Assembly: GCA_044426045.1 (NCBI GenBank)
Contig: JAWXUX010000007.1
Span: 26,318-90,317, forward strand
Length of the DNA stretch: 64,000 nt
Origin: Bacillota bacterium
GTDB taxonomy: Bacteria > Bacillota > Clostridia > Christensenellales > CAMQZB01
Direction: 5' to 3'
In this document: positions 39,623 to 63,064 of the stretch, one piece after another
Layout of the letters: each line of letters opens with the position of its first letter
Position numbering within the stretch: the first letter of the stretch is position 1
The notes under the pieces: model-generated
The model's input: only the letters and a program-made list of their open reading frames with translations
What the model was told of the DNA's origin: nothing
Database searches by the model: none
Position numbers and translations under genes: made by a program

Positions 39623-39835
39623 TTGTTTTCTCCTTTATATATCATAACAGCAAAACATCATCTTGCGTTGCGTTTTTGATTACCTTTGTGTACACTGCAA
39701 GTATAACATACCTTTGCATTTTGTCAAGTACATTCCGAGGATGGCAGATATAGCGCCCAAGTGGTTGGATTTTGTTGGATTAGAATTCTAGATATTCAAC
39801 ACCAATCAGGTAACTTGATTTTTTCACTGACTGGT

Positions 39836-39872
39836 GCTGAAAAGAAGAACCAAAGTTTACACCTTGGGTTCT
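39836..39872 (-). terminator. probable rho-independent terminator after fic
   Basis: Stem AGAACCCAAG/CTTTGGTTCT (one mismatch) followed on the minus strand by TCTTTTC. Confidence 0.45.
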
Positions 39873-39888
39873 TTTGTTATATATAGTT

Positions 39889-40776
39889 TTAAAAAGATAT
39901 CTTAAAATACTCCATAGCACGCTTGAAATTATCTTGAGCTGAAAGGCATGTGTCCCCGAGATAGCCTTTTTCGCTTTCCCACTCTTTGAGACCACGATAA
40001 TAAAATAACTTGTGCGTTTCATCTATAACAAACGGCACGATATTATTTTTTAGGCACTGTTTCAATATTATCAGCCTACCGACCCTGCCGTTGCCATCTT
40101 GAAAAGGGTGAATACATTCAAATTTATAGTGGAAATCGAGGATATCATCTAGTTCAATTTGTTGTTTTTCGTTATATTCACAAATAAGTTTCTTAAGCTC
40201 TTTTGCGACATCTTCAGGACTTGTGGTGTTGCTTCCACCAATCTGGTTTGGCAATTTTTTATATTCGCCGACATTAAACCAACTTTTTTTGCTGTCGCTT
40301 GTGCCATTTTTCAGCACCATATGCAATTCTTTGATGAACTTTTCACTGAGACGCGCAGATGCATTTTCTATAACCATATCAATACATCTGAAATGGTTTG
40401 CCGTTTCTATGATATCATCCACATTGTGAACTTTATCAGACATGCCGATTGTGTTTGTTTCAAAAATATAGCGAGTTTCATCGTGCGTCAGCTTGCTTCC
40501 CTCGATATGGTTCGAATTATACGTCAAATCAATCTGAAGTTTATGGTAAATACCCCCGCTGGTTTTGCCATTCATTTCCTCACTGAGCCTATAAAGCAAA
40601 TTATCACTCTGATTTTTCGCCGTGTTTTTTCGCAATGGCTTAACTGCACTTTCAGGAATATTCCAAGTCTTGCCAGTCAAAAATGCCCCTGCTATTTGCC
40701 CACTAGCACAATAATTTCGCACACTTCGATCCGAAACTCCCCATTTCAAAGCCACTTCCTTTACAGATAAATACAT
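39889..40776 (-). CDS. fic: Fic family protein with N-terminal HTH
   Basis: HPFQDGNGRVGR active-site motif and SNHIEG, an [ST]xxxE[GN] auto-inhibition motif. GGAGGTGG RBS. Confidence 0.9.
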   Translation of the reverse strand: MYLSVKEVALKWGVSDRSVRNYCASGQIAGAFLTGKTWNIPESAVKPLRKNTAKNQSDNLLYRLSEEMNGKTSGGIYHKLQIDLTYNSNHIEGSKLTHDETRYIFETNTIGMSDKVHNVDDIIETANHFRCIDMVIENASARLSEKFIKELHMVLKNGTSDSKKSWFNVGEYKKLPNQIGGSNTTSPEDVAKELKKLICEYNEKQQIELDDILDFHYKFECIHPFQDGNGRVGRLIILKQCLKNNIVPFVIDETHKLFYYRGLKEWESEKGYLGDTCLSAQDNFKRAMEYFKISF

Positions 40777-40798
40777 ACGCCACCTCCGCCATATAGCT

Positions 40799-40827
40799 AT
40801 TATACTAAACTATCGGCAAAAAGTCAA
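40799..40827 (-). promoter_or_regulatory. sigma-70-type promoter of fic
   Basis: Minus strand TTGACT (40822-40827), 17-nt spacer, TATAAT (40799-40804). Confidence 0.6.
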
Positions 40828-40863
40828 TATCAAAACAAATATATTGCACATCTTTTTGCCGAT
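40812..40863. promoter_or_regulatory. 12-bp inverted repeat overlapping the fic -35 box (candidate operator)
   Basis: ATCGGCAAAAAG (40812-40823) and CTTTTTGCCGAT (40852-40863). Confidence 0.4.
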
Positions 40864-40895
40864 AACGGCACTGCTTACACCCTCCCCAAAAATCC

Positions 40896-40937
40896 ACACA
40901 AAAAAGCCCACTTTAGTGATGAACTAAAAGTGGGCTT
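40896..40937 (-). terminator. rho-independent terminator after the DarT-like gene
   Basis: Stem AAGCCCACTTTTAG/CTAAAGTGGGCTT followed on the minus strand by TTTTTTGTGTG. Confidence 0.7.
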
Positions 40938-41048
40938 ATTTATGTGAGTTAGACACCAAAAGTACATTTTGGCGAGTGTGTATGCAACCTAAAGTGCATT
41001 TTTATAGATGTTTGCAACTAGAAGTACATACTATTTATATTGAAACTT

Positions 41049-42077
41049 CTATATAACATTTGTTTCATCTATTGGCTTCTCTATACATGCCAATATATTG
41101 TGTTCCACATACAAACTTATCCTCAGTATTTTTGTTTTTTCATAATGCGGTATTTTATTTATTCCTATAGGTCTTGTATCCTGATAGTTCATCATGCACT
41201 TAAGTTTTCGTTCAAAAAGAATTTCGTTTTTACCATTTAGCCATTGAAAAACAAACTCTAGCTCTATTTGTGACAATTCATCTAATTCTCGTTTTTCCAT
41301 TTGGTGTTTATCGTATTTACATTTATCCAAAGTATCCGTAAAATTAAAAGTAACACTATTTTCATTAAATATAATATCTTCAACAAATAAACCGTTCTTC
41401 TCAAACATGTCACTTCTGCATACTTTTACTTTATCTTTATATTTATAAAATAATTTTTCATTTTTAGCCTTCAAAAGAGTCATAAATGTAGATTTTTCCA
41501 CGTGATTTCTGCACAATATAACATTTAAACTGTCATCGATATTATACTCATTAGGACATAAAATTTCTGCATGCCTATATTTTCTATCCTCATAATCTGC
41601 AAAGTTATTACCATAAATCTTTTTAAAATTTAATTTAGCAAAATCATCTTCACCACTATACAACTCTGCTCCATGTCCAGCCTGACTGAATTCAGAAAAA
41701 GCAACACCGTTTGTTTTTAAAATTTTTTCCATATCAAAAAGAAAAAATATTGGTACAGTGACATTTGCATTTCTATCACCGTCATACCTCAAATCAGGAT
41801 GCTTATACCCCTCATTATAATATTGAGTTGGAGTCATCGGTCTAAAATAAAATCTAGCACTAGACAAAGCTTCACTCTCCGTCATGTTAATTACTTGCAT
41901 ACTAGCGTTATCATTTTTCATCAACTGCTTATCCGATACTTGTAATCTACTATATATATATCCAGTTGACAAAATATTCACTGCATTTGTGATATCTGTA
42001 TAATGATATGCAAATTTAGGCCACCATGCAACATCTGCTATTTCACAGTTATTTTTTATTATTTCTGAATATGTCAT
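41049..42077 (-). CDS. darT: DarT-like (DUF4433) ADP-ribosyltransferase with a ~130-aa C-terminal extension
   Basis: FAYHYTDITNAVNILSTGYIYSR, ARFYFRPMTP, FSEFSQAG and YRHAEILCPNEYNIDDSLNVILCRN match my recollection of DarT motifs. The start is coupled to the macro gene (GAGGGG RBS inside its end). Confidence 0.65.
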   Translation of the reverse strand: MTYSEIIKNNCEIADVAWWPKFAYHYTDITNAVNILSTGYIYSRLQVSDKQLMKNDNASMQVINMTESEALSSARFYFRPMTPTQYYNEGYKHPDLRYDGDRNANVTVPIFFLFDMEKILKTNGVAFSEFSQAGHGAELYSGEDDFAKLNFKKIYGNNFADYEDRKYRHAEILCPNEYNIDDSLNVILCRNHVEKSTFMTLLKAKNEKLFYKYKDKVKVCRSDMFEKNGLFVEDIIFNENSVTFNFTDTLDKCKYDKHQMEKRELDELSQIELEFVFQWLNGKNEILFERKLKCMMNYQDTRPIGINKIPHYEKTKILRISLYVEHNILACIEKPIDETNVI

Positions 42078-42081
42078 TAAA

Positions 42082-42933
42082 CTACCCCTCTAATCCGAAG
42101 GCTCTTCCGCGGCCTTCATTAAGCTGATAGCCATCAACAAATACACCTTGCTTATCCATAATACGGACTTTCGAAATATATCCTAGGTCATTTAGTAATT
42201 TACAAAAAATGCTTTTTATATTATTGCTTTCGCTTTTAAATATCAAATCATTTCTAACCTCATCCCATATTCCATACAATTCTTCAAAGGTTGTAATATA
42301 TTCTTCATTTCCACATTTAAAAATATAGTTTTCGCCATCTTTTTCAACAGTCCAATCATTTTCAAAAATATATGAAATCATTCTACATTGCTCTTCAACA
42401 TCGTCAAGAACACCTCTAAATGACATATTTTTTGCATCTTTTTTGAGCCAATCCATAGTTCCTTTTGGATTTTTGTGTTCAGGTTCGATATTCTCGCCAG
42501 GTCCTATATAGATATAAACATCTATAGGCAACGGCTTCAAATATTTTTCCATTATCGGACGCACATCATTCCAAGACAATTCCCCATTCCCGCATCCCAA
42601 TCTAGGAAACGCTATTGAAGTTATACTTTTTTCCGCATACGTACTAACGAATTTTCTTAGACCATCTTCTATATATTCAAGTTTTGACGGATTCCTCCAA
42701 TGCTCTTTAGTTGGAAATAGCAACACCCAATGATCAGGGAAATAGAACAACATAAGTTTTCCTGTTTTTAAAGCATGCTTTTCGCAAACTTTTTTATAGT
42801 CATCAAACATTCTAGGATATCTATTTTTGAATGTCAATGCAAGACCCTTTCCCATAACTCCAACTGTATTGACCGTATTAACAATAACTTGCGCCGGACT
42901 ATCAAATATATTACCTTCTACATATTCTAACAT
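42082..42933 (-). CDS. darG: macrodomain protein (DarG-like antitoxin candidate)
   Basis: VIVNTVNTVGVMGKGLA and SIAFPRLGCGNGEL macro motifs, plus a ~130-aa C-terminal domain. Confidence 0.7.
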   Translation of the reverse strand: MLEYVEGNIFDSPAQVIVNTVNTVGVMGKGLALTFKNRYPRMFDDYKKVCEKHALKTGKLMLFYFPDHWVLLFPTKEHWRNPSKLEYIEDGLRKFVSTYAEKSITSIAFPRLGCGNGELSWNDVRPIMEKYLKPLPIDVYIYIGPGENIEPEHKNPKGTMDWLKKDAKNMSFRGVLDDVEEQCRMISYIFENDWTVEKDGENYIFKCGNEEYITTFEELYGIWDEVRNDLIFKSESNNIKSIFCKLLNDLGYISKVRIMDKQGVFVDGYQLNEGRGRAFGLEG

Positions 42934-42941
42934 TTAACACC

Positions 42942-43160
42942 TCATTTCAACTTAATCTTTTCACCATTAGGCAACACAAAATCGCATTCAATTTTGCAAC
43001 CTGTCACCATAGCAATTGTATCTAAATTATCCAAACTGAATGAACCCCGTTTAATTTTTTGCGAAAATGCTTGCGGAGTTACATTCATTCTTTTTGCAAT
43101 CTCCGCAGCAGTCAAGTCCGTTTTAGCACATAAAGTTTTTATCTGTTCATCTATTCTCAT
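42942..43160 (-). CDS. XRE-family HTH protein
   Basis: DLTAAEIAKRMNVTPQAFSQKIKRG. ATG at 43160 preceded by GAGGT. Stop lies 8 nt before the macro gene. Confidence 0.7.
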   Translation of the reverse strand: MRIDEQIKTLCAKTDLTAAEIAKRMNVTPQAFSQKIKRGSFSLDNLDTIAMVTGCKIECDFVLPNGEKIKLK

Positions 43161-43253
43161 ACTATACCTCACATTTATTATAAACTATTTCGTTTAAAAT
43201 GTCAATATATACGTTGATTTTATATTACTTAATATATTGTATATTTTTATACT

Positions 43254-43865
43254 TTACACCATTTTTATAAACTCGCTCGCAATATCCACATCGTCAATTC
43301 TTATTGTTATTTCTTCATCGGTGGCAAAGCCCATGAAATTTATATTGCCGTACCATGTGATTTTACAATCTATCACTGCGAAGTTTTGATGTACTTTTTC
43401 TTTTTGAATCACTTTAATTCCAAAGTTTTGAAGGTGCTCTATATTTCGCGATACGGCGTCTTTCATTTCTGGTTTGAAAGATTCTGTTTGTGTTGTTATT
43501 ATTGTCACGACAGTGCCGTTTAGCATTGCTATGGCAAATTCTTTTGCTATATTTGTTATTCTATCTTTTTTCAAAGATGAGGCGAACACTACAATTTCAC
43601 AATTTGCTTTTCTTATATCTTCATAGAATGCTTTTGAGTAATTTTCTGTGTTATAAATAATATTTGGATTGTTTTCTACCCCTTCGCACCCTAATATTTT
43701 ATAGCCTATTTCCGCATAACTTTTAACCCTTTTGTGATACATTCTTTCAAGCACTGGCACGTGGATATCGGCGTAGTCGTATATCACTACATCCTTTTTG
43801 TTATCTAGCAAGCGATGAAGTCTGCCAGCATATTGAGCAACTTTGCCCTTCCATGCTATTGGCAT
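43254..43865 (-). CDS. helicase motif VI plus HKD-like domain fragment (C-terminal 203 aa)
   Basis: Same frame as the upstream fragment. Its first Met lies 13 codons after the TAA. Confidence 0.55.
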   Translation of the reverse strand: MPIAWKGKVAQYAGRLHRLLDNKKDVVIYDYADIHVPVLERMYHKRVKSYAEIGYKILGCEGVENNPNIIYNTENYSKAFYEDIRKANCEIVVFASSLKKDRITNIAKEFAIAMLNGTVVTIITTQTESFKPEMKDAVSRNIEHLQNFGIKVIQKEKVHQNFAVIDCKITWYGNINFMGFATDEEITIRIDDVDIASEFIKMV

Positions 43866-43904
43866 TGCAAGAAAAAGGGTATCTAATCTCGGGAAATCAA
43901 ATCC

Positions 43905-46187
43905 TTAACCCACGTATTTACCCGTTGCGATTATAACTAGGCTGTCGCAATCTTTATATTCTGCGAGTTTTTCACTTGCCAATCGCTTTTCTTTAGCAGA
44001 CATTGTGCCAACCAATTTGACTATGTTCTCGCACTTATCTTTCAAAAGCTCGCTCAATAGTTCCACATGACCTACTCGCTCGGTCAAAACAAGTGGCGTT
44101 CTTCCATTTCCTAGTGCTGAAACAACATCACCAACTATCATTTTATTTCTCTCGCTATTTTTTGCAATGTCATTATATATTTGAGAGATTTGCTTTTCGT
44201 CTTTTATTGCCGTCACTTTCAATTTTGTAAATCTAGGGGAAATATAATGCTCAAATGGACGATTGCCCGCCTCCGTTTTGGCATCAACTCGGTATCTTAT
44301 ATCCCCACACTGCAAGAAAATTATTGGATGGTGCCCGTCTTGTCTTGTTGGAGTTGCAGTTAGCCCATAAACATACCTCGCACTTGCACACTTCAAAATC
44401 TTTTCAAAATTCACCGCCGACACATGATGGCATTCGTCAACTATTATTTGCCCATAGTTTCGCACAAGTTCCTTGACCTCGCCACCCTCAAATAGCGATT
44501 GCATAATAGCCACATCAACTTTGCCATTCAATGTGTTTTTGCCACCGCCAAGAATGCCAACTGGGCTTAACTGTTTTTTGCGTCCACGCTTTTTAGGCTG
44601 ATCTTCGACATCAATTTCTGGTTGTTGCAAAATCAAAAATTCCTCAAGTGATTTTTGCCACTGAGAAAGCAAGCTTTGAGTGTGAACTAGCACAAGGGTG
44701 TTTGTTTTATGTTTTGCTATTATATTAGCAGAAACCACCGTTTTTCCAAAAGCAGTAGTTGCAGAAAGCACCCCCGTGTCATGCGCAAGCAAAGCGTTCA
44801 CTGCCAAAGATTGTTTTTCTCGCAATTTGCCTTTAAATTCTGCTTGAATTTCCTTTCCAAAGTTCCTTTCGTCTACAATCTTATAACTCACATCTGCATT
44901 TTCCAGCATGCGAACAAGCGATTCTTTCCCTCCTCTTGGGATTGAAATATAATCACCATCATCTTCTGCAAGCGTTATTATCCGCGGTTTATTATATATC
45001 GGCAGTCGCATAGCTTGCGATTTATAGAAATCAGGATTTCTGAATGAAACCAACCTTTTAATCTGCGTTTGTACTTTTTGCGATAAACCAGCTTTACCTA
45101 TATAAATCGTTCCAGCCTCCACTATTTCCACTTCACTGCAAGTGAAATCTTCTTTTGAGATTACGGTTTTTCTAGCATTTTGCCACGGCTTTTTGTTCTC
45201 ACTTTCTTCATCTGTTGTGACTAGCTCACCTAAATCAGAATTAACGCATAGAACTGCCACTTTTCCCTCTACTTCTACAAGTGTTATCTTCTTAGCTTCA
45301 GAAAGATACGCCCATTGGTCTTTTATTGGAGCGAAATCATCATCCACAAACACACTGTTACCATTCTTTCTAGCAAGTCCTTGCAACGGCAGTGCAATAA
45401 GATTGCCAAAACCACCGTGTGGCATATTGTCTTGGTTTGGGAAAAGTCTATCGTATGAATCAAATTTGATATCGCTTCGGCTGCTCATTGCAAACGTCAA
45501 AAGACCGCTCCCCAACTTTCTTGCCAAATAGCTAGGAACGCACTCTGCAAAAAATATCCAAACATGTGCGCCGTTTCCCGAGCGAGAACGCTCAATATAT
45601 ACTGGAATTTCATGTTCTTGTGCAACTCCCTTAAAAGCTAAAACATCTTTTTCGTATTCTGCATCGTCAAAGTCCAATGCTAAAAAATGGCAAGCTTCAT
45701 CTTTTAGCATTGGATAAATTCCCAACACATCTTTCCCTTGCGAATCCTTGCCACGTAAATGATTTTCTATGACTTCATCACTTATAGATTTCAATTTCCT
45801 ATGCGGACAAGTTGCACATTTATATTTCTTTTTGTCACACAAATAACTGTTCCATTCATTTAAACAAACGGGCTGATATCCACTCTTTCCTGTTTTGGCA
45901 CTGTACCACCGCCGAGCAAATACATCATCCCGCCCCTTGAAAAGCGAGCGAAACAACGTAATTTTGTCTTCCTTTGAACTTTGCATATTAACTTGCAGTA
46001 TTTTATTTTGAGTGTTTCTATCTTCTGCTAGAACTGGCAGGCTATCTTCATTTACAGCCAATAAACTTTCTATATCTACATTTAAATCACGCAGTCTATC
46101 ACGAAAAACACCATTCTCAAACCGCAATCTTTCGTTTTCTAAAAGCAATTTGTCGTATAAAGTTTTTAATTCGTCGTAGTTATTCAT
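43905..46187 (-). CDS. AEP-helicase fragment (N-terminal 760 aa)
   Basis: Tracked ORF 43905..46208. Ends at the premature TAA between helicase motifs V and VI. Confidence 0.6.
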   Translation of the reverse strand: MNNYDELKTLYDKLLLENERLRFENGVFRDRLRDLNVDIESLLAVNEDSLPVLAEDRNTQNKILQVNMQSSKEDKITLFRSLFKGRDDVFARRWYSAKTGKSGYQPVCLNEWNSYLCDKKKYKCATCPHRKLKSISDEVIENHLRGKDSQGKDVLGIYPMLKDEACHFLALDFDDAEYEKDVLAFKGVAQEHEIPVYIERSRSGNGAHVWIFFAECVPSYLARKLGSGLLTFAMSSRSDIKFDSYDRLFPNQDNMPHGGFGNLIALPLQGLARKNGNSVFVDDDFAPIKDQWAYLSEAKKITLVEVEGKVAVLCVNSDLGELVTTDEESENKKPWQNARKTVISKEDFTCSEVEIVEAGTIYIGKAGLSQKVQTQIKRLVSFRNPDFYKSQAMRLPIYNKPRIITLAEDDGDYISIPRGGKESLVRMLENADVSYKIVDERNFGKEIQAEFKGKLREKQSLAVNALLAHDTGVLSATTAFGKTVVSANIIAKHKTNTLVLVHTQSLLSQWQKSLEEFLILQQPEIDVEDQPKKRGRKKQLSPVGILGGGKNTLNGKVDVAIMQSLFEGGEVKELVRNYGQIIVDECHHVSAVNFEKILKCASARYVYGLTATPTRQDGHHPIIFLQCGDIRYRVDAKTEAGNRPFEHYISPRFTKLKVTAIKDEKQISQIYNDIAKNSERNKMIVGDVVSALGNGRTPLVLTERVGHVELLSELLKDKCENIVKLVGTMSAKEKRLASEKLAEYKDCDSLVIIATGKYVG

Positions 46188-46194
46188 TAATTCA

Positions 46195-47157
46195 TTAAGC
46201 TTCTTCAATTAAATCAAATATTGAATTTTGCACATTTGCTCTAGTTTCAGGTGTATTTCTTACATAATTCAAGTCAAAATTCAAATCTATTGGCAGGGCT
46301 CCTTGTGCGATAAGTTGTTTATTTCCTTTATACTCGCTATTATCCCAGCAAAGTGTGTGCCCCCAATTATTTCTCAAATTCTCAGTTGCACCCGCCCATG
46401 TACCACCTTTGTTATAGTCAGCTTTCACCACAACAGTTCCCAAAGCCTGGGCATATATATATTTATTTCTTTGCATTGCCATTCCAACGTTAAATCCCGC
46501 ACTAGGACTGCTTGCGGAAATCAACACTAGCTTGCCATCACGTATCGCTTTCGCTGTTTTGCCATTTTTAATTTTCCTAGCCATAGAATCCGACAAAAAT
46601 TCAATCGCAACACCACCGATATTGATAGCTTCACTTGTTGCAACAGTATCCACTCCTTTAGCTCCGCCAGAAGCAATATAAAATTGTGATTCAACTGCTT
46701 TTTTAACCATTTCTTCAGTAAATTTCACATCTGCTCCTGAGACATTTCTTGAGCCGACATATCCAATAGACTCATTGTTTAACAAGTCGATATCTCCACA
46801 ATAATAAAATAGCGGTGGACAGCTTTGCTTAAGCTTTCTTTTTAAATTTTTTGGATACTCATCATCTGCTCTTGTCACTATGTTTATACCCATGCCATTC
46901 AGCTTTTCAATCTCAAACGCTAAACTGCCACCTCTATCTAGCAATCGTTTTATTCTATCTGCTTTACCACTATCAAAGCACAGAATATCATTAAAATCTG
47001 CTATACCAAAATCCAGCAAATCTTGTGGCGATTTTTTATGGACAATCAGTTGACTGGAAATTTCTGCCCACTCTTTTGGGAGCAATGGACTTATTCCTTC
47101 ACCAACACCAATATGGCTGCACAAACAGAATATTACTTCGCTAATTTTATTTTTCAT
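46195..47157 (-). CDS. DprA/Smf-like (SLOG Rossmann) protein
   Basis: GYVGSRNVSGADV...ASGGAKGVDTVATSEAI...QRNKYIYA. Start overlaps the RecQ stop (TAATG). Confidence 0.8.
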   Translation of the reverse strand: MKNKISEVIFCLCSHIGVGEGISPLLPKEWAEISSQLIVHKKSPQDLLDFGIADFNDILCFDSGKADRIKRLLDRGGSLAFEIEKLNGMGINIVTRADDEYPKNLKRKLKQSCPPLFYYCGDIDLLNNESIGYVGSRNVSGADVKFTEEMVKKAVESQFYIASGGAKGVDTVATSEAINIGGVAIEFLSDSMARKIKNGKTAKAIRDGKLVLISASSPSAGFNVGMAMQRNKYIYAQALGTVVVKADYNKGGTWAGATENLRNNWGHTLCWDNSEYKGNKQLIAQGALPIDLNFDLNYVRNTPETRANVQNSIFDLIEEA

Positions 47158-53174: not shown

Positions 53175-53285
53175 AATTAACCTCTTTTTTAATACCGTAA
53201 GTATAGCACAATTAATCGCTTTTGTAAAGATGAAAAGCAAAATACAACAGCCGTTTTCAGCGTTGCCTTGATATTCTATTACTTT

Positions 53286-53914: not shown

Positions 53915-53996
53915 ATTTCTCCCTGTTATTATGTAAGCATTGTTGCGAACACTAGCCTTTAAATTAAGGCTCAGATGCCCTGAGCCTCTTTCCTGT

Positions 53997-54410
53997 TTAT
54001 TTTATTTTTGAAATTGCCTCATGAATAGCAAAGAACGCATCTTCATTATCCATTACCTTAGAGTCAATATTATGTGATACCGCCATAAATTTTCTGACAA
54101 TATCCCTGACAGCTTCATTGCTTTTTAAAAACTCAACCATATCTGGAGCAAGCTCTTCGCGCCCTATGCCAACTAATTCACACAAATACCATTCCATTTC
54201 GCCATCTAATTTTAATGCTTCAATAAACTTATTTAGCAAATCGCCCACTGGAGGGTTTCTCTTTCCCTTTTCAATGTCCGACAAATAAGAAGGCGCAATC
54301 CCAAGCTCACCTGCAAGCCCACGCAAACTCATCCCCAAACTAGCCCTGCGATCCTTAACAAACTCACCAAACTGCTGATTTTGCTCTTTTAAATCTTTTA
54401 TCCGTGTCAT
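53997..54410 (-). CDS. XRE-family transcriptional regulator
   Basis: SLGMSLRGLAGELGIAPSYLSDIEKGKRNPP. ATG at 54410 preceded by GGAGG; the tracked start 54422 is TTG. Confidence 0.8.
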   Translation of the reverse strand: MTRIKDLKEQNQQFGEFVKDRRASLGMSLRGLAGELGIAPSYLSDIEKGKRNPPVGDLLNKFIEALKLDGEMEWYLCELVGIGREELAPDMVEFLKSNEAVRDIVRKFMAVSHNIDSKVMDNEDAFFAIHEAISKIK

Positions 54411-54441
54411 ATTAGCCTCCAAAATTCATATGTTCGCTAAC

Positions 54442-54470
54442 ATGATAACACAACACTTTGTATTTGTCAA
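54442..54470 (-). promoter_or_regulatory. candidate promoter of the XRE gene
   Basis: Minus strand TTGACA (54465-54470), 17 nt, TATCAT (54442-54447). Confidence 0.5.
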
Positions 54471-54610
54471 TAGTTTTAGAAAAATTTTTTATTGAATATT
54501 ATTTTATTATCTTAATATTAGCATATAGGCATAAAGCACATACTGTTCTTTATATAATTACATCAAATTGCAATGCATACCACGCTTTTTATACAAGGGA
54601 TATATATTAT

Positions 54611-54640
54611 TTAGTGTATATATGTAAATATATACACTAA
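54611..54640. promoter_or_regulatory. perfect 13-bp inverted repeat (candidate operator or hairpin)
   Basis: TTAGTGTATATAT-GTAA-ATATATACACTAA. Confidence 0.5.
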
Positions 54641-55035
54641 AAACACTATGGTTTTGGTTACTTATATCTTTATCTTTCTATAATAGCAATCACTATTTAA
54701 CCCAATGCACATACCTATCTATCAAGTTACGCAATAATATTCATACGCCTACGAAATGCAATAAACACATTCCCTTGCATTTATCTTATCCTCTATTTTT
54801 GATTGTTTATTTTATTCCACACACTATTTCATTAAACAAACTATAAATAGCAAAAAAATTTTATTCGATTTAGTTTCGTATTTTCTATTTATTGTATAAA
54901 TATCAAAATGTTTTGTAAATTTGATTCTAAACCATCTTCACCTTGACTATTTCCCTCGTAAATACAATCTTAGAAATCGGTTATTGCAATTCTGTTTATC
55001 TCATTGATTCCTTTTAATAAAATAAGCAGTGCTAC

Positions 55036-55064
55036 TTGACTTTATAATTTATACCTGATATAAT
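55036..55064 (+). promoter_or_regulatory. candidate sigma-70 promoter of the plus-strand two-gene unit
   Basis: TTGACT (55036-55041), 17 nt, TATAAT (55059-55064). About 78 nt upstream of the start. Confidence 0.55.
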
Positions 55065-55141
55065 AAAGTAGCAATAAAGTAATCGCATTTCTTATCATCA
55101 ATATCAGCAGTATATATATTATATACAATAAGGAGTTTCAA

Positions 55142-55663
55142 TTGAAAACACTTCAAGAACTTTATCTTTACAATGATAAAGTATCTGCTTTTATACATTT
55201 TATAGCGTACGCAATATCTTGGATATTGGGAATAGTTATCTTTCATATAAAAGCTGAATATAATTTTGCTGGATCATACTTAATTTTTGCCCTTTCTCTC
55301 TTAACCGAATTCATACCACAATTATCTAATATAAAGGGTAAAATTGCTAGTCTAATTCACATGCTTTTTTGTCTCATTATAGCATTCATTCTAGTCTTCT
55401 CTATATTACTATTGAGTGATTTATTAACCGAACATTTACTAATTACTTTATATCACTATTTATTTATCGCATCAATAATAGTTATCACTTATATATTATT
55501 AAATTTGATTTTGATTACAGTATTCCCTCCAATTGACAAAAATATTACAAAACATTACCCAAGTAAAGATTCTCAATATTATTCAATGGTCGAGGAAGCA
55601 TTTGTCAAAAACTTACACAATGGCCATTTAGGCAATGTAATTGGAGGTAATAAGGATGAATAA
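55142..55663 (+). CDS. integral membrane protein, unknown function
   Basis: TTG start with AAGGAG 6 nt upstream. Four to five TM helices. Overlaps the ParA-like gene by 8 nt. Confidence 0.6.
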   Translation: MKTLQELYLYNDKVSAFIHFIAYAISWILGIVIFHIKAEYNFAGSYLIFALSLLTEFIPQLSNIKGKIASLIHMLFCLIIAFILVFSILLLSDLLTEHLLITLYHYLFIASIIVITYILLNLILITVFPPIDKNITKHYPSKDSQYYSMVEEAFVKNLHNGHLGNVIGGNKDE

Positions 55664-56801
55664 TACCGTAGCTTTCTTAAGCGGAAAAGGTGGTAGCGGA
55701 AAGACCACAATAGCCCTAAGTGTTTCATCAATGCTATCTAAATGCAACATAAAAATATTGCTGTTAGATTGTGACTTAAACACGAATGGAGCAACTTATT
55801 TCTACGAAGAAAAACTTTCGCAATCGAAAAACATACTGTCATTTCAGGATCTCATCTGCGACGATATTGATATTGACACTATTACACAAATAAATAGTAA
55901 TATGTTTTTTATTCCATCTATGACTAAATTCTCAGAAAAAAACACACTTCCTTCGTTATTTGATAGCCATGCAAAATTAAATTTCAATAGAAACATGCAA
56001 AAATTATTATCTAATTATGATGTTATACTATATGATTGTCAAGCTGGATACTCAGAAGTTTTAGAACTTGTTTTGCCTTTAGTTGATACAAATTTGATAG
56101 TAATGGAATCCGATGCTATTAGTGCATCATCATTAAGAAACTTATATTTAAAAATTGGACATTTATTGAATGACAATCATACTTATCAAATATTCAACAA
56201 AGTATCAAGTGATGAGTATAAAATATACTCAAAATTATCCAAAGAAACTTTCTTCCCTAATATTGAAACTGTTCTTTTTAATTGGGAAATCAGGAAAGCA
56301 TTTGCATTAGCAAACGTTCCAAACATTGACCATTTAACAGCAAGTTATGGTAGCCAAATCAACAATATATGTATGATTTTATTTAAAAATAATCTTCACA
56401 AAAAGCTTGAAAGTTACAAACAAATACTTTTTAAACTGAATATTAACGAAGAACTAGACTCACTAAAAAAAGAGCACCTAGAACTTCTCAAGTCTACAAG
56501 ATTGCAAAATCCTAAAAAAATAAATATCTATTTAGGCACAACTTTAACATGCACTATCTTGATTCTATATAGCCTTATTTTTCAAATATACGATATCTAT
56601 TACCGATTTGAGAATTTACTATCACTTACAATATCAGCATTATTTCTAACCATACTAGTAATAAGTATATTGTTGCCATCACTTAACAAATCCAAAGAGT
56701 TATCGCTTAAACGAAAAAATATAGATAATTTAGAAAAACAATTAGTTGACTTAGAAAACCGGCACGAATCCTTATCTCTTGACATAATAAAACTTGATTA
56801 A
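55656..56801 (+). CDS. ParA/MinD-family P-loop ATPase with C-terminal TM helices and a coiled coil
   Basis: Deviant Walker A SGKGGSGKTT, then LLLDCDL and VILYDCQAG. Two hydrophobic helices near the C-terminus. ATG preceded by GGAGG. Confidence 0.8.
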   Translation: MNNTVAFLSGKGGSGKTTIALSVSSMLSKCNIKILLLDCDLNTNGATYFYEEKLSQSKNILSFQDLICDDIDIDTITQINSNMFFIPSMTKFSEKNTLPSLFDSHAKLNFNRNMQKLLSNYDVILYDCQAGYSEVLELVLPLVDTNLIVMESDAISASSLRNLYLKIGHLLNDNHTYQIFNKVSSDEYKIYSKLSKETFFPNIETVLFNWEIRKAFALANVPNIDHLTASYGSQINNICMILFKNNLHKKLESYKQILFKLNINEELDSLKKEHLELLKSTRLQNPKKINIYLGTTLTCTILILYSLIFQIYDIYYRFENLLSLTISALFLTILVISILLPSLNKSKELSLKRKNIDNLEKQLVDLENRHESLSLDIIKLD

Positions 56802-57282
56802 TGATATATCCATATATTATTAAGTGCTATTCACTCTCGCCATAAACATACAACATAAAATTAATATATAGCAAAATTATTACTATAAAAATTGAACTTC
56901 AATCTTGTCAATAAGCCACTAGCCAAACTGGCAACTTGACCGTAAGTATCAATTTACCCACCCCTTGACAAATAAAAAACTCACACCGCATGCTTTATGT
57001 TGGCAGATGGTGTGAGTTAGATAGTTTTTTATAGTTAGATTTTAATTTTTTAATTAATTGGGCGTCGGTCATTAAATCGCCTTCATCGTGGAGGTCGGAT
57101 AAATAGTATGCGTAGTCTTCTGCTAGACCGATGTTTTAAACTACACTAACCCGCTATATTACATCATTTGCATTTTTCCATAATATTGCTTCTTTAATTT
57201 ATTTACTAAATGGAGACTATAAAACAAAAGTATAGCTATGTCTTAAAAATTTTCATTTTATCCTAAATATTTTGTAGCACCA

Positions 57283-58653
57283 TTAATATATTTCATCGCC
57301 TTTTTTCCACACTGATTCAATATAAGATTTTAATTTCTCATAATAAATATTATTATTTAGGTACACATTCTCATCTTTCCACCAATTGAAATTGCTATGA
57401 TATAAATGTGTATTTTTAAAATTTTCTATAACCAATTTTCCTTTATCTAAGCCATACTCCTCTGGATTTTTAAAAATTTTAGACCCTGGCAATGGAGTGA
57501 ATCTCAGCAATGAAACGCTGTCAATGCAACCTTTCATTTCTCTTAAAAAATTTAACGTATCCTTATTTGTTTGCTCGCTTTCAAAAGGAAACCCGCTAAC
57601 GATAAAACATTTTACATATATTGATTTTTGATGCGTATTTTTTATAGCTATTCTAGCGTCATTAACAACACATGTCTTATCCATCTTATCCAAAATCAAA
57701 TCGCTACCAGTTTCAACACCAAATTTTATTTCCACACATCCTGCAGAATATAACACATCTAAAATATCGTCATCCCCTGCAATTTGATCAACTCTTGCCG
57801 CTAAAGACCATTTCAAATTTAATTCTGCGATTTTATCGCAAATCTTTCTTGCTTTAATTTTATTTGTAAGGAAGCAATCATCAATTATTGCAAAGCCACC
57901 GATCTCATATTTCTCCTTTAGATGCTTTAACTCAGCATAAATATTTTCAGGCGACCGATATCTCGTCGGCGAATTATTTCCATCTTTAGACGCACCGCAA
58001 TACTTGCAGCCTTGCGAACACCCCCGACTAAACAGCATATGCACCATTTTGATACCGTGATTATTTGCAACCCTACCCGCCATGACAACATCATTAATGT
58101 TTAACAATTCTCTTGCAGGAAACTCCAAGCTATTCAAATCAACTATATCTTTACGCTTTATTAATTTAGAAATTTCACCACTTACAGCATCTTTAACATA
58201 AGTACCATTAACGTAGTATTGTCCATTTCTTACCTCTTCAAAACGAGCCAAGAACTCCGCCATACTATTTTCGCCTTCTCCTGCAAATATCAAATTTACA
58301 CTTAATTGCTCAAATACCTCTTTATAATGTTTTTCAGCATGATATCCTCCGGCCACATAATAAGCATTACTATTAAATTCAGATTTTTCTGTAAAAGCAG
58401 CAAATATTGAGTGCGAATATGCCGAAACCATACTTATGGCTACAAGATCATAGATTTTTAGATCTAACGCATAATTTTCCTCATCGATACTTATCAAATC
58501 TATATCCCAACCCGCATGCTTAATTATAGGCGCCAAATATAGCACCCCAAAAGGCGGGAATTCTTTTCTTTTTTTCTTAAAATGAGCTACTTCATATGAA
58601 GACACATACACTAACGCACATCTTTTCTTTATATTAGATATTTCTTCTATCAT
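57283..58653 (-). CDS. B12-binding-domain radical SAM protein
   Basis: FPPFGVLYLA B12-domain signature and the CxxxCxxC cluster SRGCSQGCKYCG. Paralogous to the C-terminal half of the 60188..62754 gene. Confidence 0.85.
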   Translation of the reverse strand: MIEEISNIKKRCALVYVSSYEVAHFKKKRKEFPPFGVLYLAPIIKHAGWDIDLISIDEENYALDLKIYDLVAISMVSAYSHSIFAAFTEKSEFNSNAYYVAGGYHAEKHYKEVFEQLSVNLIFAGEGENSMAEFLARFEEVRNGQYYVNGTYVKDAVSGEISKLIKRKDIVDLNSLEFPARELLNINDVVMAGRVANNHGIKMVHMLFSRGCSQGCKYCGASKDGNNSPTRYRSPENIYAELKHLKEKYEIGGFAIIDDCFLTNKIKARKICDKIAELNLKWSLAARVDQIAGDDDILDVLYSAGCVEIKFGVETGSDLILDKMDKTCVVNDARIAIKNTHQKSIYVKCFIVSGFPFESEQTNKDTLNFLREMKGCIDSVSLLRFTPLPGSKIFKNPEEYGLDKGKLVIENFKNTHLYHSNFNWWKDENVYLNNNIYYEKLKSYIESVWKKGDEIY

Positions 58654-58735
58654 TTTGGCTATAAGTGCTTAACTAAAACACAACTCCTTCTTCGCAAAGC
58701 TGTTTTGCGAAATTTTCAATCAGCATAAAGATCTA

Positions 58736-59293
58736 TTATTGATTGATTTTTTTATACAATAAGTTTGAATATCCCTCATTGTTTTTATTTGCAGTATTCA
58801 ACTCTAGCTCTTCGACTACACCATATACCAGTCTATTCGACTCCTCTACAGAAAGGTCTTTTTTATCGCACTCTATTTCAATAAAATATCCGAGATTCTT
58901 AACCTTATCTAAAGCTATTTTACAACAATCTTTATATCTATACTCAATCCTTTTCTTTTCAACACAGAGAATACGCTCTATATCAAGATAAGCTAATAGC
59001 TTTTCCATTTTAGTAATACTACCAATTACAACACTCACTTCATCCATGAATGTTTCTTCATCATTTTTTCCAAAATGAATCTGCTTATAATCCAGTGTTG
59101 CCCAACTATCCGCCTGTCTAATTCTTAGGCATTTATCCATATCTACAAAAAAATCACAATGCTTTGGCGAGTAGTAAATGTCTTTTTGAGTACTTTCATG
59201 AATAATCTCACATTCCAATCGCAATTTATCGCAAAGCTCAGTGTATTTTTGCAAAGAAACTTCTAATTTGATTTCAACTTCTATATTTTCCAT
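58736..59293 (-). CDS. CYTH-domain protein (triphosphate tunnel metalloenzyme / class IV adenylate cyclase-like)
   Basis: N-terminal EVEIKLEV (ExExK) signature, ~185 aa; GAGGG RBS. Confidence 0.7.
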   Translation of the reverse strand: MENIEVEIKLEVSLQKYTELCDKLRLECEIIHESTQKDIYYSPKHCDFFVDMDKCLRIRQADSWATLDYKQIHFGKNDEETFMDEVSVVIGSITKMEKLLAYLDIERILCVEKKRIEYRYKDCCKIALDKVKNLGYFIEIECDKKDLSVEESNRLVYGVVEELELNTANKNNEGYSNLLYKKINQ

Positions 59294-59377
59294 AAAGTAC
59301 CCTCACTTATTTTTATGATTGAATTATATCACATTATTCATCAAATGCAAAACATTAATACCCATAATATATGCTAA

Positions 59378-60163
59378 CTACTTATTTCTTAATGAAATTA
59401 AATTTTCCATTATCCAAGTTGCTACACCATCTTCTTGATTAGAACCACAAATGTAGTTAGCTATATTTTTTATCTCAATTGTCGCATTTTTGACAGCAAC
59501 CCCAATAGAACAATTTTCTATCATATCTTTGTCGTTATTATCATCTCCAAAAGCCAAAACATTAATTCTTCCAAAACCATAATCTTTCAAAACTATATCT
59601 ATCGCATTCATTTTGTTAGATGTTTTTGACATAATTTGCACAAGATTATTATTACATTTATTAATAGTAATCATAGAATTATATTGACACAGTGTATTAA
59701 TGTCAAATTTTTCATTTATTTCAATAGTAATTTTCATTATTTTATTTAAATAAATACTATTTTCATACAGTATTGCATTCCAAATCGCATCTGCCATAAA
59801 TGGGGAATTTTCACTGCAATATAAATTTTCTCCTGTTTCAATATCAAAATACTTAATCCCGTCACACTGCAAGAAATTTATTATATCAATACCAATGTTT
59901 GGGTCAATATAGCTATTTTTAATAATTTTTCCATTAGAATATACAGTTGCTCCATTATTTGCAATAATACCATCTACATCAAGGCATGTTTTTTCTAACA
60001 TATTAAAAACCACCCTTAATGGTCTAGCTGTAGCAAGAAATACGACTATCCCCAATTCTCTACACTTATTGATAACCTGAATTGAATATTTTGATATGCT
60101 TTTATCATCATGCAACAAAGATCCATCCAAATCTATCGCCAATAACTTTATATCATGACACAT
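59378..60163 (-). CDS. Cof-type HAD-IIB family phosphatase
   Basis: Motif I LAIDLDGSLL, motif IV AFGDDNNDKDM; AGGAG RBS. Confidence 0.85.
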   Translation of the reverse strand: MCHDIKLLAIDLDGSLLHDDKSISKYSIQVINKCRELGIVVFLATARPLRVVFNMLEKTCLDVDGIIANNGATVYSNGKIIKNSYIDPNIGIDIINFLQCDGIKYFDIETGENLYCSENSPFMADAIWNAILYENSIYLNKIMKITIEINEKFDINTLCQYNSMITINKCNNNLVQIMSKTSNKMNAIDIVLKDYGFGRINVLAFGDDNNDKDMIENCSIGVAVKNATIEIKNIANYICGSNQEDGVATWIMENLISLRNK

Positions 60164-60187
60164 TAAATCTCCTAAGAAAACAACAGA

Positions 60188-62754
60188 TCAATAAATTACT
60201 TTATCATTTTTCCATATCCTTTCAATGTATTGTTCTAACACTTTATAATACGTATTTTTCTTTTTGAATTCTGTCTCATCTTTCCACCAATTAAAATTCC
60301 CATGGTATAAATGTAAGTTATCAAAATTTTCTAAAATTAATTTCTCTTTATCAATGCCATATTTCTCTGGGTTAGAAAAATTGGTGAACCTGGCAATGGC
60401 GTAAATCGCAACAATGATACACTATCAATTTTTTTATGTAATTTCTTTAAAAATAACAGCGTTTCCTTCGTCGTAACTGCTGTTTCTCCTGGGAACCCAC
60501 TAACGATAAAACATTTAACGTAAAAGCCTTGTTCATGCGCTAAATTTATTGCATTTTCAGCGCACATTGAGCTACACCCCTTATTCATATAATTCAATAT
60601 TATATTACTTCCAGATTCAATTCCAAATTTTATTTCTACACAACCCGCATCTTTCAAAGAACCCAAAATATCCAAATCAATTTGGTCGGCTCTAGCAGCA
60701 AGTGACCATTTTAAATTTAGTGAAGCATTTTCAATTGCTTTACAAATTTTAATGGCAGCGTTCTTATCGGTTAAAAAACAATCATCAATTATAGCAAATC
60801 CATCTATTTTATAGGTTTTCTTTAACAAAATTAATTCTTCTACAATATTGTCTGGCGACCTATATCTAACAGGGCTATTTTTCCCATCTTTCGTCGCACC
60901 GCAATACAGACACATCTTTGAACAGCCTCGACTAAATAGAACATGTACTATTCTAACATTGCTATCATTTCTTAATCTTCCCGTCATTACAATGTCACTT
61001 TCCGGCAAAAGGTCTCGAGCAGGAAACGGTATGCTATTTAATTTGACGGTATCCTTGCTCTCTTTAAATTTGTATAATGACATTTTTAAAGGACTCGCTC
61101 CTTCACTTTTAGATTGCGATTCTTTATCTATCATAAATGTGCCATTAATATATGTTTTAGGACATCTAGCTCCAAAATATTTGTTTAAAAATTCAGTTAA
61201 CGCATTTTCTCCCTCTCCTGAAAATACTAGGTCTACATACATATCTCTCATCACATCTTGATAGTATTTTTCAGCATGATATCCTCCAGCAACCATATAA
61301 CGACCTCGTTTAAACTTGCTAGTATCTACAAATTTCTTAAAGATAGCATGCCCATATGAAGACACCATGCTCAAACCAACAACATCAGCATCGCTTAAAT
61401 CATGCGTGAAAGCGTTTTCGCTTATACTTTTGATTTCTACATCCCAACCAGCATCTCGAATTATACTTGCCAAATATAATATTCCAAATGGAGGAAACTC
61501 TTTTCTATATTCTTTGAAATGCGCCACTTCATATGATGATATGTATATTAAAACAAATTTATATTTTAACCTTATATTTAATTGGCTACTAAAATCTTTA
61601 TCGTCATCATTTACTGCATTCTTTTTATTCTCTTTAATACACTCTGCAACTTTATCATATATCCCGAGGCACCTTTCCACAATAATATTTGAAGATTCCA
61701 CATCTATTTTATCCCACTTCGAAGAAAAATAATCCTGATACACGGGCTTTACCACATCATTTTTGGCAGATTCTGAATACTTCCATCGTGATGAATCAAC
61801 CTGATATGTTATTATATTCTTACTCATTCTTCCTAATATTTTCGCGACATTGCACCCTATTTTATTTATCAATATTTTATCTTTGTTTTTATTAAGGTTA
61901 AGATAATATGTTGCTTTTTCACTGTCCGTTTCTACATATGTTAATGCTTTCATTGGTATGTTCGCTGAATATGTAATAAATCTAGCTCTAGTTCCAAAAT
62001 CTTCGCTATGTTCATTATAAAATTTAATTTCAACTCTCGGACACTCTCTTTTTATTTTTGCTATTCTCAACATTTGTTGAAGGTTTGTATCAAATAAATT
62101 TTCAAAAGTAGTTGTCTCAACTTCTATATTTAAATCATATTTACACAATATTTTTAATTTTAATTTTGTATTATTGCACAAATTTTTTAATTGGAGATAT
62201 TCATTGTTCTCATCCATGTCTTTTACTGGCTGCGACAAAATATATCTATTTCTATCATCTTTATCAAGATTTTTATTTTTTATATATGCAACTACCTTGC
62301 GTTTATTCTTTTTTTGTCCAAAACTTACTTGCCCCAAGAAATCCATATCCCCAGCAAGCATTTCTACAACCTCTTTATCTCCACCTTTATCCATTATATT
62401 AATAATTTTTTTTACCATCTTGTCTGGATTTAAAACATATTTTTCCCATTTGATGATATTTATTATAACAATAAATATAGAAACTATTAGACACTGTAAC
62501 ACTGAATCAATAGTTAAAAATGAAATACCCTCTATGCTTGGTAATATATCTCCTTCACTAGAGTCTTGCAGCTTACTGAATATTAATTGAAAGCTAGTAT
62601 TATCAGCAATATACGGAATAACTCTTTCAAAATAATTTGCAAAAAGTACAATAATAGCAATACCTATTAAAAATAACATCCTCGGTTTTTTCTCAGATAT
62701 TTGTGTTGCAAGAATTGTGCCAAGCAACATTGACGCTACAGCAGAATAATACAT
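60188..62754 (-). pseudogene. membrane-anchored unknown domain fused to a B12-binding radical SAM domain; -1 frameshift near the 3' end
   Basis: Tracked ORF is 60337..62766. ATG at 62754 (MYYSAV) is preceded by GGAGG. CxxxCxxC cluster SRGCSKMCLYCG. After the A5/T5 tract at 60376-60380 another frame continues NPEKYGIDKEKLILENF...NFNWWKDE... to TGA at 60188, matching the paralog's C-terminus. Confidence 0.75.
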
Positions 62755-63064
62755 TTTATCCTCCATTAATATAATTTTTTAACCATAAATAATATTGACA
62801 TTACCTTGCAATAATAATCAATCACTAAAATACAAATCACGAGTGTAAACTTTATCCAGTACGTCTGCGAGGTCTTCTGAATAGCGGTTTGCTATTATGA
62901 CGTCGGCGAGGAATTTAAATTCGTCGATAGTTCTCATTACTTTAGAATTGAAAACAAGCCCTCTGCCATCAAAAGTTCAAAGATGACCACTTCTCTATGC
63001 CTTTTGCTTTAATTCGCTTCATAGCCCCCTGAATTGAGCTTTGACGAAAGTTGTCATTTTATTA

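Follow-up and report, generated by a model that had tools for sequence, protein, structure and literature searches.

What kind of region is the AT-rich right-hand part of this window? The window is a 64,000-nucleotide stretch of contig JAWXUX010000007.1 from a Bacillota bacterium. Its left 35 kb hold ordinary chromosomal genes (phosphofructokinase, MnmA, sugar transporters and polysaccharide lyases), called the core below, and to their right toxin-type and defence-related genes are stacked around a large serine recombinase. A sequence-only reading had taken 39.7 to 63.06 kb for an integrated, possibly composite and decaying defence island that may consist of nested insertions. We consider it fairly probable that the stretch from about 37.4 kb to the end of the window is a fast-turnover accessory region of a Clostridia-like Bacillota chromosome, made of two adjacent units, an element relic (unit A) and a cassette (unit B). 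Unit A (about 40.9-54.6 kb) would be the relic of a small phage-related integrative element. Unit B (55.1-63.06 kb) would be a separately exchangeable cassette between that recombinase element and the glycan genes rfbA-rfbB-ugd.

Gene identities were assigned with Pfam and PADLOC profiles and phage families with Pfam and PHROG; the biochemical functions given below are predicted throughout. The main comparison was made with a related metagenome-assembled genome (MAG), GCA_044426065.1, whose contig JAWXUW010000003.1 (contig 3) is the only long related contig over unit A. This contig carries a recombinase protein identical to that of the window, and the window's MnmA at a matching distance from it. 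The strain comparison rests on three fetched stretches of this contig. A second contig of the same MAG (contig 14) holds a sister element, locus L004, and a third strain from another study is represented by loci L028 (a contig of 9.7 kb) and L029. The window's own strain is also present as short-read contigs that are 99.98-100% identical to the window. GTDB representative genomes were scanned with the recombinase and with the flanking CmpB protein and gave no relative close enough to compare, so the lineage is poorly sampled. Exact-protein look-ups for CmpB, ArsP and the AEP-helicase gave no match, owing to start-codon or repeat differences, and the look-up of a 247-residue flank protein yielded just one 1-kb contig.

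Two units side by side

Base composition falls in two steps along the window. Bulk GC content is 0.389 at 1-34,697, 0.351 at 37,400-39,898, 0.360 at 39,899-54,607 and 0.301 at 54,608-63,061. In 1-kb windows the core (1-34 kb) has a mean GC of 0.389 with a standard deviation of 0.026. Compared with the core, the mean is 0.357 at 39.9-54.6 kb (Mann-Whitney p=0.001) and 0.306 at 54.6-63.06 kb (p=6.5e-6), and the two stretches are also distinct from each other (p=0.0025). The tetranucleotide distance to the core follows the same two steps, from 0.12-0.24 to 0.26-0.27 and then to 0.38-0.43.

The AT-rich shift that the sequence-only reading had noticed is therefore borne out by both measures, but its placement of the left edge at 39.7 kb is not. 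GC is flat at 0.364-0.37 over 39.0-40.5 kb, with no step at 39.7 kb, and the MAG is collinear as far as 31.7 kb save for a swap at 39773-39899. The GC drop begins at about 37.3-38.0 kb, directly past a bidirectional terminator hairpin at 37359-37386 between CmpB and a helix-turn-helix (HTH) gene. This terminator is a candidate left edge of the accessory region.

The MAG is collinear with the window over 13,618-39,773, 39,899-44,043 and 46,127-54,607, while 54,607-63,062 is wholly replaced. Three independent structural differences thus separate the two strains: the swap at 39,773-39,899, a deletion in an AEP-helicase gene, and the replacement of 54,607-63,062. The third strain divides the region in another way. 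Its L028 contig carries unit B (55,112-63,149 of the window) at 99.5% identity, joined directly at 54,613 to an XRE region like that of L004; of the recombinase element it holds just this L004-like XRE-side module at the 54.6-kb junction. Related strains therefore split the stretch at 54.60-55.12 kb, near the 54.4/55.0 kb division proposed earlier, and the idea of a composite region stands. The idea of nesting does not: as aligned, units A and B are adjacent, one beside the other.

Unit A, a probable collapsed serine-recombinase element

The centre of unit A is a large serine recombinase of 507 residues (50468-51991, minus strand; Pfam Resolvase, Recombinase and Zn_ribbon_recom). Its open reading frame (ORF) is intact and has the catalytic RVS motif, the recombinase domain and the zinc ribbon that define a large serine recombinase. 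The protein is a chimera. Over residues 1 to about 177, the identity per 40-column bin is 88-100% with the first recombinase of the tandem pair in the sister element (L004 8565-11590); from about 178 to 507 it is 80-100% with the second. The crossover falls where the catalytic domain ends, on an EIVEEE motif common to both. Such a chimera is what homologous deletion between tandem paralogues would be expected to produce. It joins the catalytic domain of one paralogue to the DNA-binding domains of the other.

The sister element suggests what the window copy once looked like. L004 has the gene order XRE, small ORFs, DUF927 primase/helicase, DUF6809, KilA-N, Bro-N and two tandem large serine recombinases (477 and 529 residues). 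The window at 54,850-50,470 matches L004 at 84-93% in four blocks, and the primase block, KilA-N and the junction between recombinases A and B are gone. What remains is on the minus strand. The first gene of the module encodes a 137-residue XRE repressor-like protein (53997-54410, promoter 54470-54442). It is followed by a 162-residue ORF without a family (53426-53914), a small DUF6809-like ORF (53286-53495), a Bro-N / anti-repressor-like protein (52326-53240; PADLOC PDC-S13, 1.5e-123; phrog_15286) and a small ORF of 58 residues, 44 as called in the MAG, between Bro-N and the recombinase (52064-52240). Unit A would thus descend from an element of the order XRE, primase, DUF6809, KilA-N, Bro-N and tandem serine recombinases, which would have lost its primase and KilA-N genes and had its two recombinase genes fused into one by recombination.

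On the XRE side the element has a discrete end at 54592-54610. Four upstream contexts converge there, those of the window, MAG contig 3, MAG contig 14 and L028, and all four switch to common sequence at the same base (54,599/54,600), that is, between ...ATATATAT and CCCTTGTATAAAAA(G/A)CGTGGTAT. An 11-bp repeat, ATAATATATAT, has one copy at this end (54600-54610) and a second at 55112-55122; it occurs 3 times in the 64 kb, compared with 0.12 expected. The two copies lie at the two sides of a 512-bp non-coding segment (54611-55122) that is missing from L028. About 210 bp of this segment (54641-54850) resemble the sister element's upstream flank, and the segment also holds a promoter (55036-55064) for the membrane-protein and ParA-like genes of unit B. 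A 32-nt near-perfect palindrome at 54610-54641 (TTTAGTGTATATAT-TTAC-ATATATACACTAAA) sits exactly at the homology breakpoint with the sister strain and does not occur in L004, the MAG locus L001 or L028.

On the other side, homology to L004 ends at the recombinase stop codon and resumes, past unrelated cargo in both copies, at a conserved 143-bp element (40885-41027) made of three direct repeats of about 18 bp, some 31 bp apart, followed by a terminator hairpin. The cargo runs from RhuM through DarT in the window and consists of a Schlafen/AlbA_2 ATPase in L004. In both copies the repeat element, over 83-143 bp, closes the cargo (window 40885-41027, L004 13248-13330), and it is found again at L004 16617-16757 and at L001 18871-19015. 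The 143-bp element could consist of iterons or form an array bound by protein, encode a small RNA or mark an element end, and its copy at 40885-41027 is a candidate for the far end of the recombinase element. The recombinase element would, we infer, extend between 54.6 kb and about 40.9 kb and leave the Fic gene just outside. Downstream of the recombinase there would then be a cargo bay, ending in the threefold 18-bp repeat and its terminator.

Two observations concern the sister locus itself. One of the L004 copies of the 143-bp element has a consensus promoter reading into it, similar to the CmpB promoter (window 36482-36539). A second defence stack may lie past the recombinases of the sister element, at L004 11787-20372. 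Two Schlafen/AlbA_2 ATPase genes, a 449-residue ORF and a further resolvase fragment are interspersed there with two copies of the threefold repeat and an Oxidored_FMN/IclR pair.

Toxin-type modules of the proposed cargo stretch

The proposed cargo bay seems to be filled with self-contained, toxin-type modules, all on the minus strand: RhuM, then PsyrT and PsyrA with an AEP-helicase-PLD partner, then an HTH gene with DarG and DarT. Strong promoter-like sites lie directly upstream of most of them.

The RhuM-family gene (49354-50349; PADLOC PDC-S05) has its own promoter at 50428-50400. Next come PsyrT, a RecQ-like helicase toxin (47157-49214; PADLOC 6.2e-236, full-length match), and PsyrA, a DprA-like antitoxin (46195-47157; PADLOC 1.1e-92), which are adjacent and co-oriented, overlap by 1 bp (base 47157) and so form a PsyrTA pair. 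PsyrTA is a published toxin-antitoxin and defence system with a DprA-like antitoxin (10.1101/2022.05.11.491447). Beyond PsyrA lies a single 984-codon gene for an AEP primase-polymerase, SF2 helicase and PLD nuclease (43254-46208), broken by an in-frame stop. The sequence-only reading had grouped RecQ, DprA and AEP-helicase genes as a triad, of which the first two turn out to be PsyrTA and the third needs correction. The PLD ORF (43254-43865) and the AEP-helicase ORF (43905-46208) share a frame and are split by a TAA at 43905-43907, which falls in helicase motif V (GKYVG*GFDFP) and is GAA in the MAG. The MAG gene has instead lost 2,084 bp (44043-46127; junction at L011 5641) by a deletion between GAAAGAT repeats. 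The same gene is knocked out by the TAA here and by the deletion there, so on the two alignments it has been inactivated twice, independently. The repeated loss hints at a third gene that carries a cost or can be dispensed with.

The last operon of the bay begins with a 76-residue HTH regulator (42942-43172) behind a perfect consensus promoter (43205-43177). It continues with a macro-domain DarG-like antitoxin (42082-42933; DarG macro, 4e-62) and ends with a DarT-family ADP-ribosyltransferase toxin (41049-42077; Pfam 1.1e-23). DarT beside a macro-domain DarG identifies a DarTG pair, although the DarG-like protein matches the macro half of the DarG profile only (positions 1-161 of 329) and the C-terminal DarG antitoxin domain found no match. 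Just past the repeat element, an HTH_17-Fic protein (39889-40776; PADLOC PDC-S04, 1.4e-108; SoFic 1.4e-23) has its own promoter at 40827-40799.

PsyrTA and DarTG lie within 8 kb of each other, which makes the stretch a defence island in the sense of at least two validated systems side by side. It also shows the strain-to-strain structural differences and the GC and tetranucleotide shift of an accessory one. Fic (PDC-S04/SoFic), RhuM (PDC-S05) and Bro-N (PDC-S13) belong to PADLOC candidate families. The modules would serve as abortive-infection or toxin-antitoxin immunity: DarT would ADP-ribosylate single-stranded DNA and the macro domain would reverse this, the RecQ-like PsyrT would be restrained by the DprA-like PsyrA, and Fic would AMPylate a target. 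Pfam and PADLOC confirmed every gene class named earlier (Fic, DarT/macro, RecQ/DprA/AEP-helicase, RhuM, recombinase, Bro-N, XRE, ParA-like and radical SAM), and the gene content supports the earlier view of a stack of conflict modules rather than a prophage or an integrative and conjugative element (ICE).

Unit B, a probable swappable cassette beside the glycan genes

Unit B has six ORFs. Two are on the plus strand: a 173-residue multi-pass membrane protein without a family match (55142-55663) and a ParA/MinD-type P-loop ATPase (55641-56801; AAA_31, CbiA) with a C-terminal coiled coil and membrane segments. The other four form an operon on the minus strand. They encode a B12-binding radical SAM (rSAM) enzyme of 456 residues (57283-58653), a CYTH / class IV adenylate cyclase-like protein (58736-59293; NCBIfam cyaB, 73.5 bits with a cut-off of 57.95), a Cof-type HAD-IIB phosphatase (59378-60163) and a large rSAM protein (60187-62766). 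The large protein has an N-terminal membrane region, a rare domain of about 290 residues and a B12-rSAM part, and the smaller rSAM enzyme is a paralogue of its C-terminal half (57% amino acid identity). The AlphaFold model of the rare N-terminal domain has a pLDDT (predicted local distance difference test) score of 43.

The large rSAM gene is frameshifted in the window. One T is lost from a run of six (T5 at about 60376-60380), the ORF ends at 60337, and the product has 809 residues versus 855 in the intact L028 gene, with about 50 C-terminal residues gone. Three independent short-read contigs agree with the window at 99.98-100% across the frameshift. The T5/T6 tract could be phase-variable.

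The slot is used differently in the related strains. In place of 54,607-63,062 the MAG carries ugd and a DltB-like MBOAT gene, together with two unknown genes and one that weakly resembles rSAM genes, at a GC of 0.31-0.32. At the right border, a 3' fragment of ugd (UDP-glucose dehydrogenase) lies at 62816-63055 on the minus strand. A second ugd 3' fragment separates cassettes in the MAG (L001 5144-5372), and such fragments border the cassettes in both strains. Next to it is the 3' part of rfbB (dTDP-glucose 4,6-dehydratase; 63062-63672, ORF 63065-63601, minus strand), which is 90% identical to the intact MAG gene. The window's rfbB lacks its first ~138 codons and is cut at 63672, whereas in the MAG rfbB is intact and followed by rfbA.

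Unit B thus abuts rfbB and ugd fragments and has an alternative cassette in the sister strain, as a glycan locus would. Glycosyltransferase, flippase and polymerase genes, which would mark a glycan cassette by content, were not found among its six ORFs. Because the same slot holds ugd and MBOAT genes in a relative and ugd 3' fragments bound it, unit B is probably an exchangeable part of the envelope-glycan neighbourhood around rfb/ugd and is not a proven defence unit. It would most likely have been swapped in by recombination anchored in the ugd 3' ends, and would more probably modify a cell-envelope glycan or a small molecule than act as a classical defence system.

Could unit B be a new anti-phage system after all, making for example a modified nucleotide, and the whole region a pure defence island? 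This seems unlikely, though several points speak for it. Unit B adjoins the stacked defence modules and travels as an 8-kb unit, at 99.5% identity, in the third strain. CYTH and HAD enzymes act on phosphorylated small molecules or nucleotides, and the N-terminal domain of the large rSAM protein is extremely rare: its N-terminal 400 residues have 4 matches in 1.84 billion representative proteins. The closest rSAM relatives also lie beside thymidylate-kinase-like and AlkZ-like genes in two metagenome loci. However, comparison with validated defence systems gave no match, and both rSAM proteins match only the PADLOC candidate PDC-M51A, a generic hit through the radical-SAM domain (E ~1e-11). The sister strain has glycan-type genes in the same slot, with ugd fragments next to rfbB. 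The sequence-only reading's extension of defence to the right-hand unit is not supported. The ParA-like protein is weakly similar to polysaccharide tyrosine autokinases. The make-up of the cassette is not conserved in distant relatives, and the large rSAM gene is frameshifted in the window strain.

In the metagenome searches, a scan with the large rSAM protein found nothing, and a scan with the alignment of the rSAM paralogues found relatives at 28-37% identity only, in unrelated contexts. The rSAM-domain relatives at 35-37% identity stand alone in varied contexts. The nearest relatives, on two soil/groundwater metagenome contigs (L018 3706-6984 and L019 2599-5711), adjoin thymidylate-kinase-like and AlkZ-like DNA glycosylase genes.

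A further proposal, which we regard as quite improbable, is that unit B is an undescribed conflict module that moves as a unit and makes a modified nucleotide or alters a phage-receptor glycan. Separately, and just as tentatively, the element family of unit A may collect defence genes in its cargo bay between the recombinase stop codon and the iteron-like threefold 18-bp element.

Open right border and gene remnants

The right side of the region had been described as ending in gene remnants and a truncated rfbB. The remnants are there and rfbB does lack its 5' end, but the end is not a closed one. Since the rfbB fragment is itself cut at 63672, the window holds no closing border for the variable region. 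The short-read contigs of the window's own strain all stop within the rfbB fragment, at about 63,095-63,101, a pattern consistent with another copy of rfbB elsewhere in the genome. The last bases, 63673-64000, are AT-rich (0.33), have no ORF and match no fetched locus. Another insertion or rearrangement probably starts at 63673. The two higher-GC remnants pointed out earlier are also real: 56930-57140 has a GC of 0.374 and contains the 3' end of a gene, then a hairpin (remnant 57036-57140, minus strand), and 62816-63055, the ugd 3' end, has a GC of 0.384.

The term decaying is justified because the AEP-helicase-PLD and large rSAM genes are broken, the recombinase is fused, the replication genes are lost, and ugd and rfbB are present as fragments. 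In this respect the sequence-only reading was right.

Inheritance, insertion and loss

Several findings weigh against the reading of the region as an element relic beside an exchangeable cassette. Identity between the window and the MAG is a mosaic when taken per kb (88-100%): many core bins are 100% identical and others 88-97%, and the island bins are 97-100%. Unit A is thus no more similar to the MAG than the core is, so recent transfer is not indicated. The GC of unit A is just 3 points under that of the core. Its far end is suggested by one shared 143-bp element in just two element copies. No flanking direct or terminal inverted repeats were found beyond chance, nor did an empty site turn up, and the two long related assemblies hold unit A at the same locus. 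For unit B, the function is predicted from sequence, and the metagenome rSAM relatives have no HAD, CYTH or ParA neighbours. The two broken genes could be sequencing errors.

These points raise the alternative that the region is an ancestral, vertically inherited neighbourhood in which low GC is gene-specific and only local indels occur. The MAG has the same genes in the same place over 31.7-54.6 kb, no empty site or att repeat was found, and the modest GC drop of unit A is matched by single core 1-kb windows that go down to 0.337. We nevertheless find this alternative improbable. The same genome has a fuller, paralogous recombinase module elsewhere, with different flanks and the same start base. 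The stretch is packed with defence and toxin-antitoxin families that are typically mobile, three structural differences separate strains that are 99.5-100% identical in many core kb, and the tetranucleotide signature is unlike that of the core.

For the element reading of unit A this leaves the question of insertion. The sequence-only reading had called the region integrated. The aligned relatives and the repeat searches gave neither an empty site nor att repeats: the MAG carries the whole of 39.9-54.6 kb at the same place, and the GTDB representatives gave no relative. When an inverted partner was sought for the defined element end at 54.6 kb, the matches were no better than in shuffled sequence, and the window has no tRNA and no Rfam family as an integration target. 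Insertion and current mobility are therefore unproven. The recombinase would have made the original insertion, the cargo bay would extend as described above, and the element would now be immobile. Recent transfer of unit A, suggested by its 98.4-99.75% identity to the MAG, was considered and rejected, as many core kb are 100% identical and divergence is patchy throughout.

The region might also be what is left of a prophage that degraded and lost its structural genes by deletion, instead of a satellite or small integrative element. Prophages commonly carry Bro-N, XRE and serine recombinase genes, and homologues of the Bro-N protein occur on IMG/VR contigs of 8-51 kb at 49-74% identity. Of these IMG/VR loci, three have tandem serine recombinases, one of the three also has KilA-N, and one has a DUF927 homologue; the element family is phage-related for this reason. 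The recombinase has relatives at 32-36% identity in phage records. But the fuller L004 copy has a DUF927 primase and, over the ~10.6 kb from XRE to the recombinases, no structural genes, and no remnants of structural genes were seen in the window. There is no DNA similarity to deposited phages: unit A had no megablast match among plasmids or phages, and a viral scan with the recombinase found nothing. A prophage stump seems improbable on these grounds.

The gene content of 37.4-63.7 kb agrees with the earlier statement that capsid, tail, type IV secretion system (T4SS) and relaxase genes are missing. No ORF there has a Pfam or PHROG match to capsid, terminase, portal or tail genes, as a prophage would require. 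None has a family match to a relaxase, coupling protein or T4SS, as an ICE or an integrative and mobilizable element would. Neither does the region qualify as a phage satellite of the PICI (phage-inducible chromosomal island) or P4-like type: the window copy is without the sister's DUF927 primase, and no packaging or capsid-redirecting genes were recognised.

Very unlikely, finally, is that the whole of 39.7-63 kb is a single element currently moved by the serine recombinase: the recombinase ORF is intact with all its domains and the whole stretch is AT-richer than the core, but a near-identical strain swaps 54.6-63.06 kb yet keeps 39.9-54.6 kb, the two parts differ in composition, the recombinase is fused and the replication genes are deleted, no terminal repeats were found, and there is no clean right end, rfbB itself being cut.

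The low-GC left flank and other observations

Between the candidate left edge and the Fic gene lie three genes on the minus strand. HTH272 is an XRE-family HTH protein of 272 residues (37400-38218) in the low-GC flank. It is followed by a 112-residue ORF without a family (38390-38728; GC 0.29) and a 247-residue protein that is membrane-anchored at its N-terminus and matches Big_2 weakly, under the cut-off (38879-39622). The variable spot at 39773-39899 consists in the window of 126 bp with a terminator hairpin. In its place the MAG has 2,991 bp with a second Fic gene, a gene for a 264-residue lipoprotein-like protein, and HTH261, a paralogue of HTH272 (47% identity). The possibility that the whole left flank at 34.7-39.9 kb is replaced in the MAG was rejected, the fetched MAG stretch being collinear.

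A 22-nt direct repeat with one mismatch (38224-38245 and 59310-59331; expected ~0.07) lies directly upstream of the HTH272 and CYTH starts. As a pair of att sites (38224/59310) it was rejected, since it is at the border of chance and inside operons.

In the ArsP-type permease gene, 35320-35550 holds five tandem 39-42-nt repeats that encode a repeated Cys/His-rich loop. Strains probably differ in the number or sequence of these repeats (418 vs 419 residues; no exact protein match). A 2,300-residue surface protein of the MAG corresponds to three ORFs at 27257-34514 of the window, with a frame change at about 28.04-28.10 kb and a stop at 33188. The middle of this surface protein is just 88-92% identical to the MAG, the most divergent stretch of the core.

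Comparison with known systems

The locus leaves current concepts unchanged. It is a small, well-resolved case of defence genes piling up and then rotting beside a dying integrative element in an uncultured Bacillota lineage. The collapse of tandem recombinases at a domain boundary is a naturally occurring swap of domains and as such of some interest to recombinase engineering, and the rSAM/HAD/CYTH/ParA cassette is rare and uncharacterised.

Among the individual modules, the operon of a RecQ-like helicase followed by a DprA-like PsyrA resembles PsyrTA / RqlHI; unlike in PsyrTA, a third gene (AEP-helicase-PLD) here overlaps the end of PsyrA. DarT directly downstream of a macro-domain protein is the arrangement of DarTG, except that here the C-terminal 120 residues of the DarG-like protein are unrelated and the operon starts with a 76-residue HTH gene. 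Pfam places the AEP domain in PF22548, 'AEP-TOTE'. TOTE stands for TPR, OB, TBP and Effector in a passage of PMC12458937 that cites Aravind et al. 2022. The likeness is confined to the effector-type domain: no match to TPR, OB/cold-shock domain (CSD) or TBP was found in the region, so this is not a TOTE system.

At the level of the whole region, defence islands and hotspots in or beside integrative elements and phage satellites are described in passages of Millman et al. 2022 (10.1101/2022.05.11.491447) and in Rousset et al. 2022 as cited there. As in such hotspots, several unrelated anti-phage and toxin-antitoxin modules with their own promoters lie beside an integrase and a repressor, with high turnover between close strains. 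Unlike in those hotspots, the integrase is a large serine recombinase of chimeric make-up that belongs to a decayed element, neither att sites nor an empty site could be demonstrated, and one third of the region (unit B) is not demonstrably defence.

Unit B is closer to the variable cassettes of O-antigen, capsule or teichoic-acid loci as generally known. It is very AT-rich, strain-specific and near rfbA/rfbB/ugd, with gene fragments at its borders, though its content (two B12-rSAM proteins, HAD, CYTH and a ParA-like protein) would be unusual there.

SCCmec-type composite islands have tandem CcrA/CcrB serine recombinases and grow by serial accretion at one att site. The locus differs from them in that it has no orfX-like target and no repeated att at the unit borders, and in that its recombinase pair has collapsed to one fusion gene. 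It is like them in that the sister element has a tandem pair of large serine recombinases, one and the same element end borders on different units, and cargo lies beside the recombinases.

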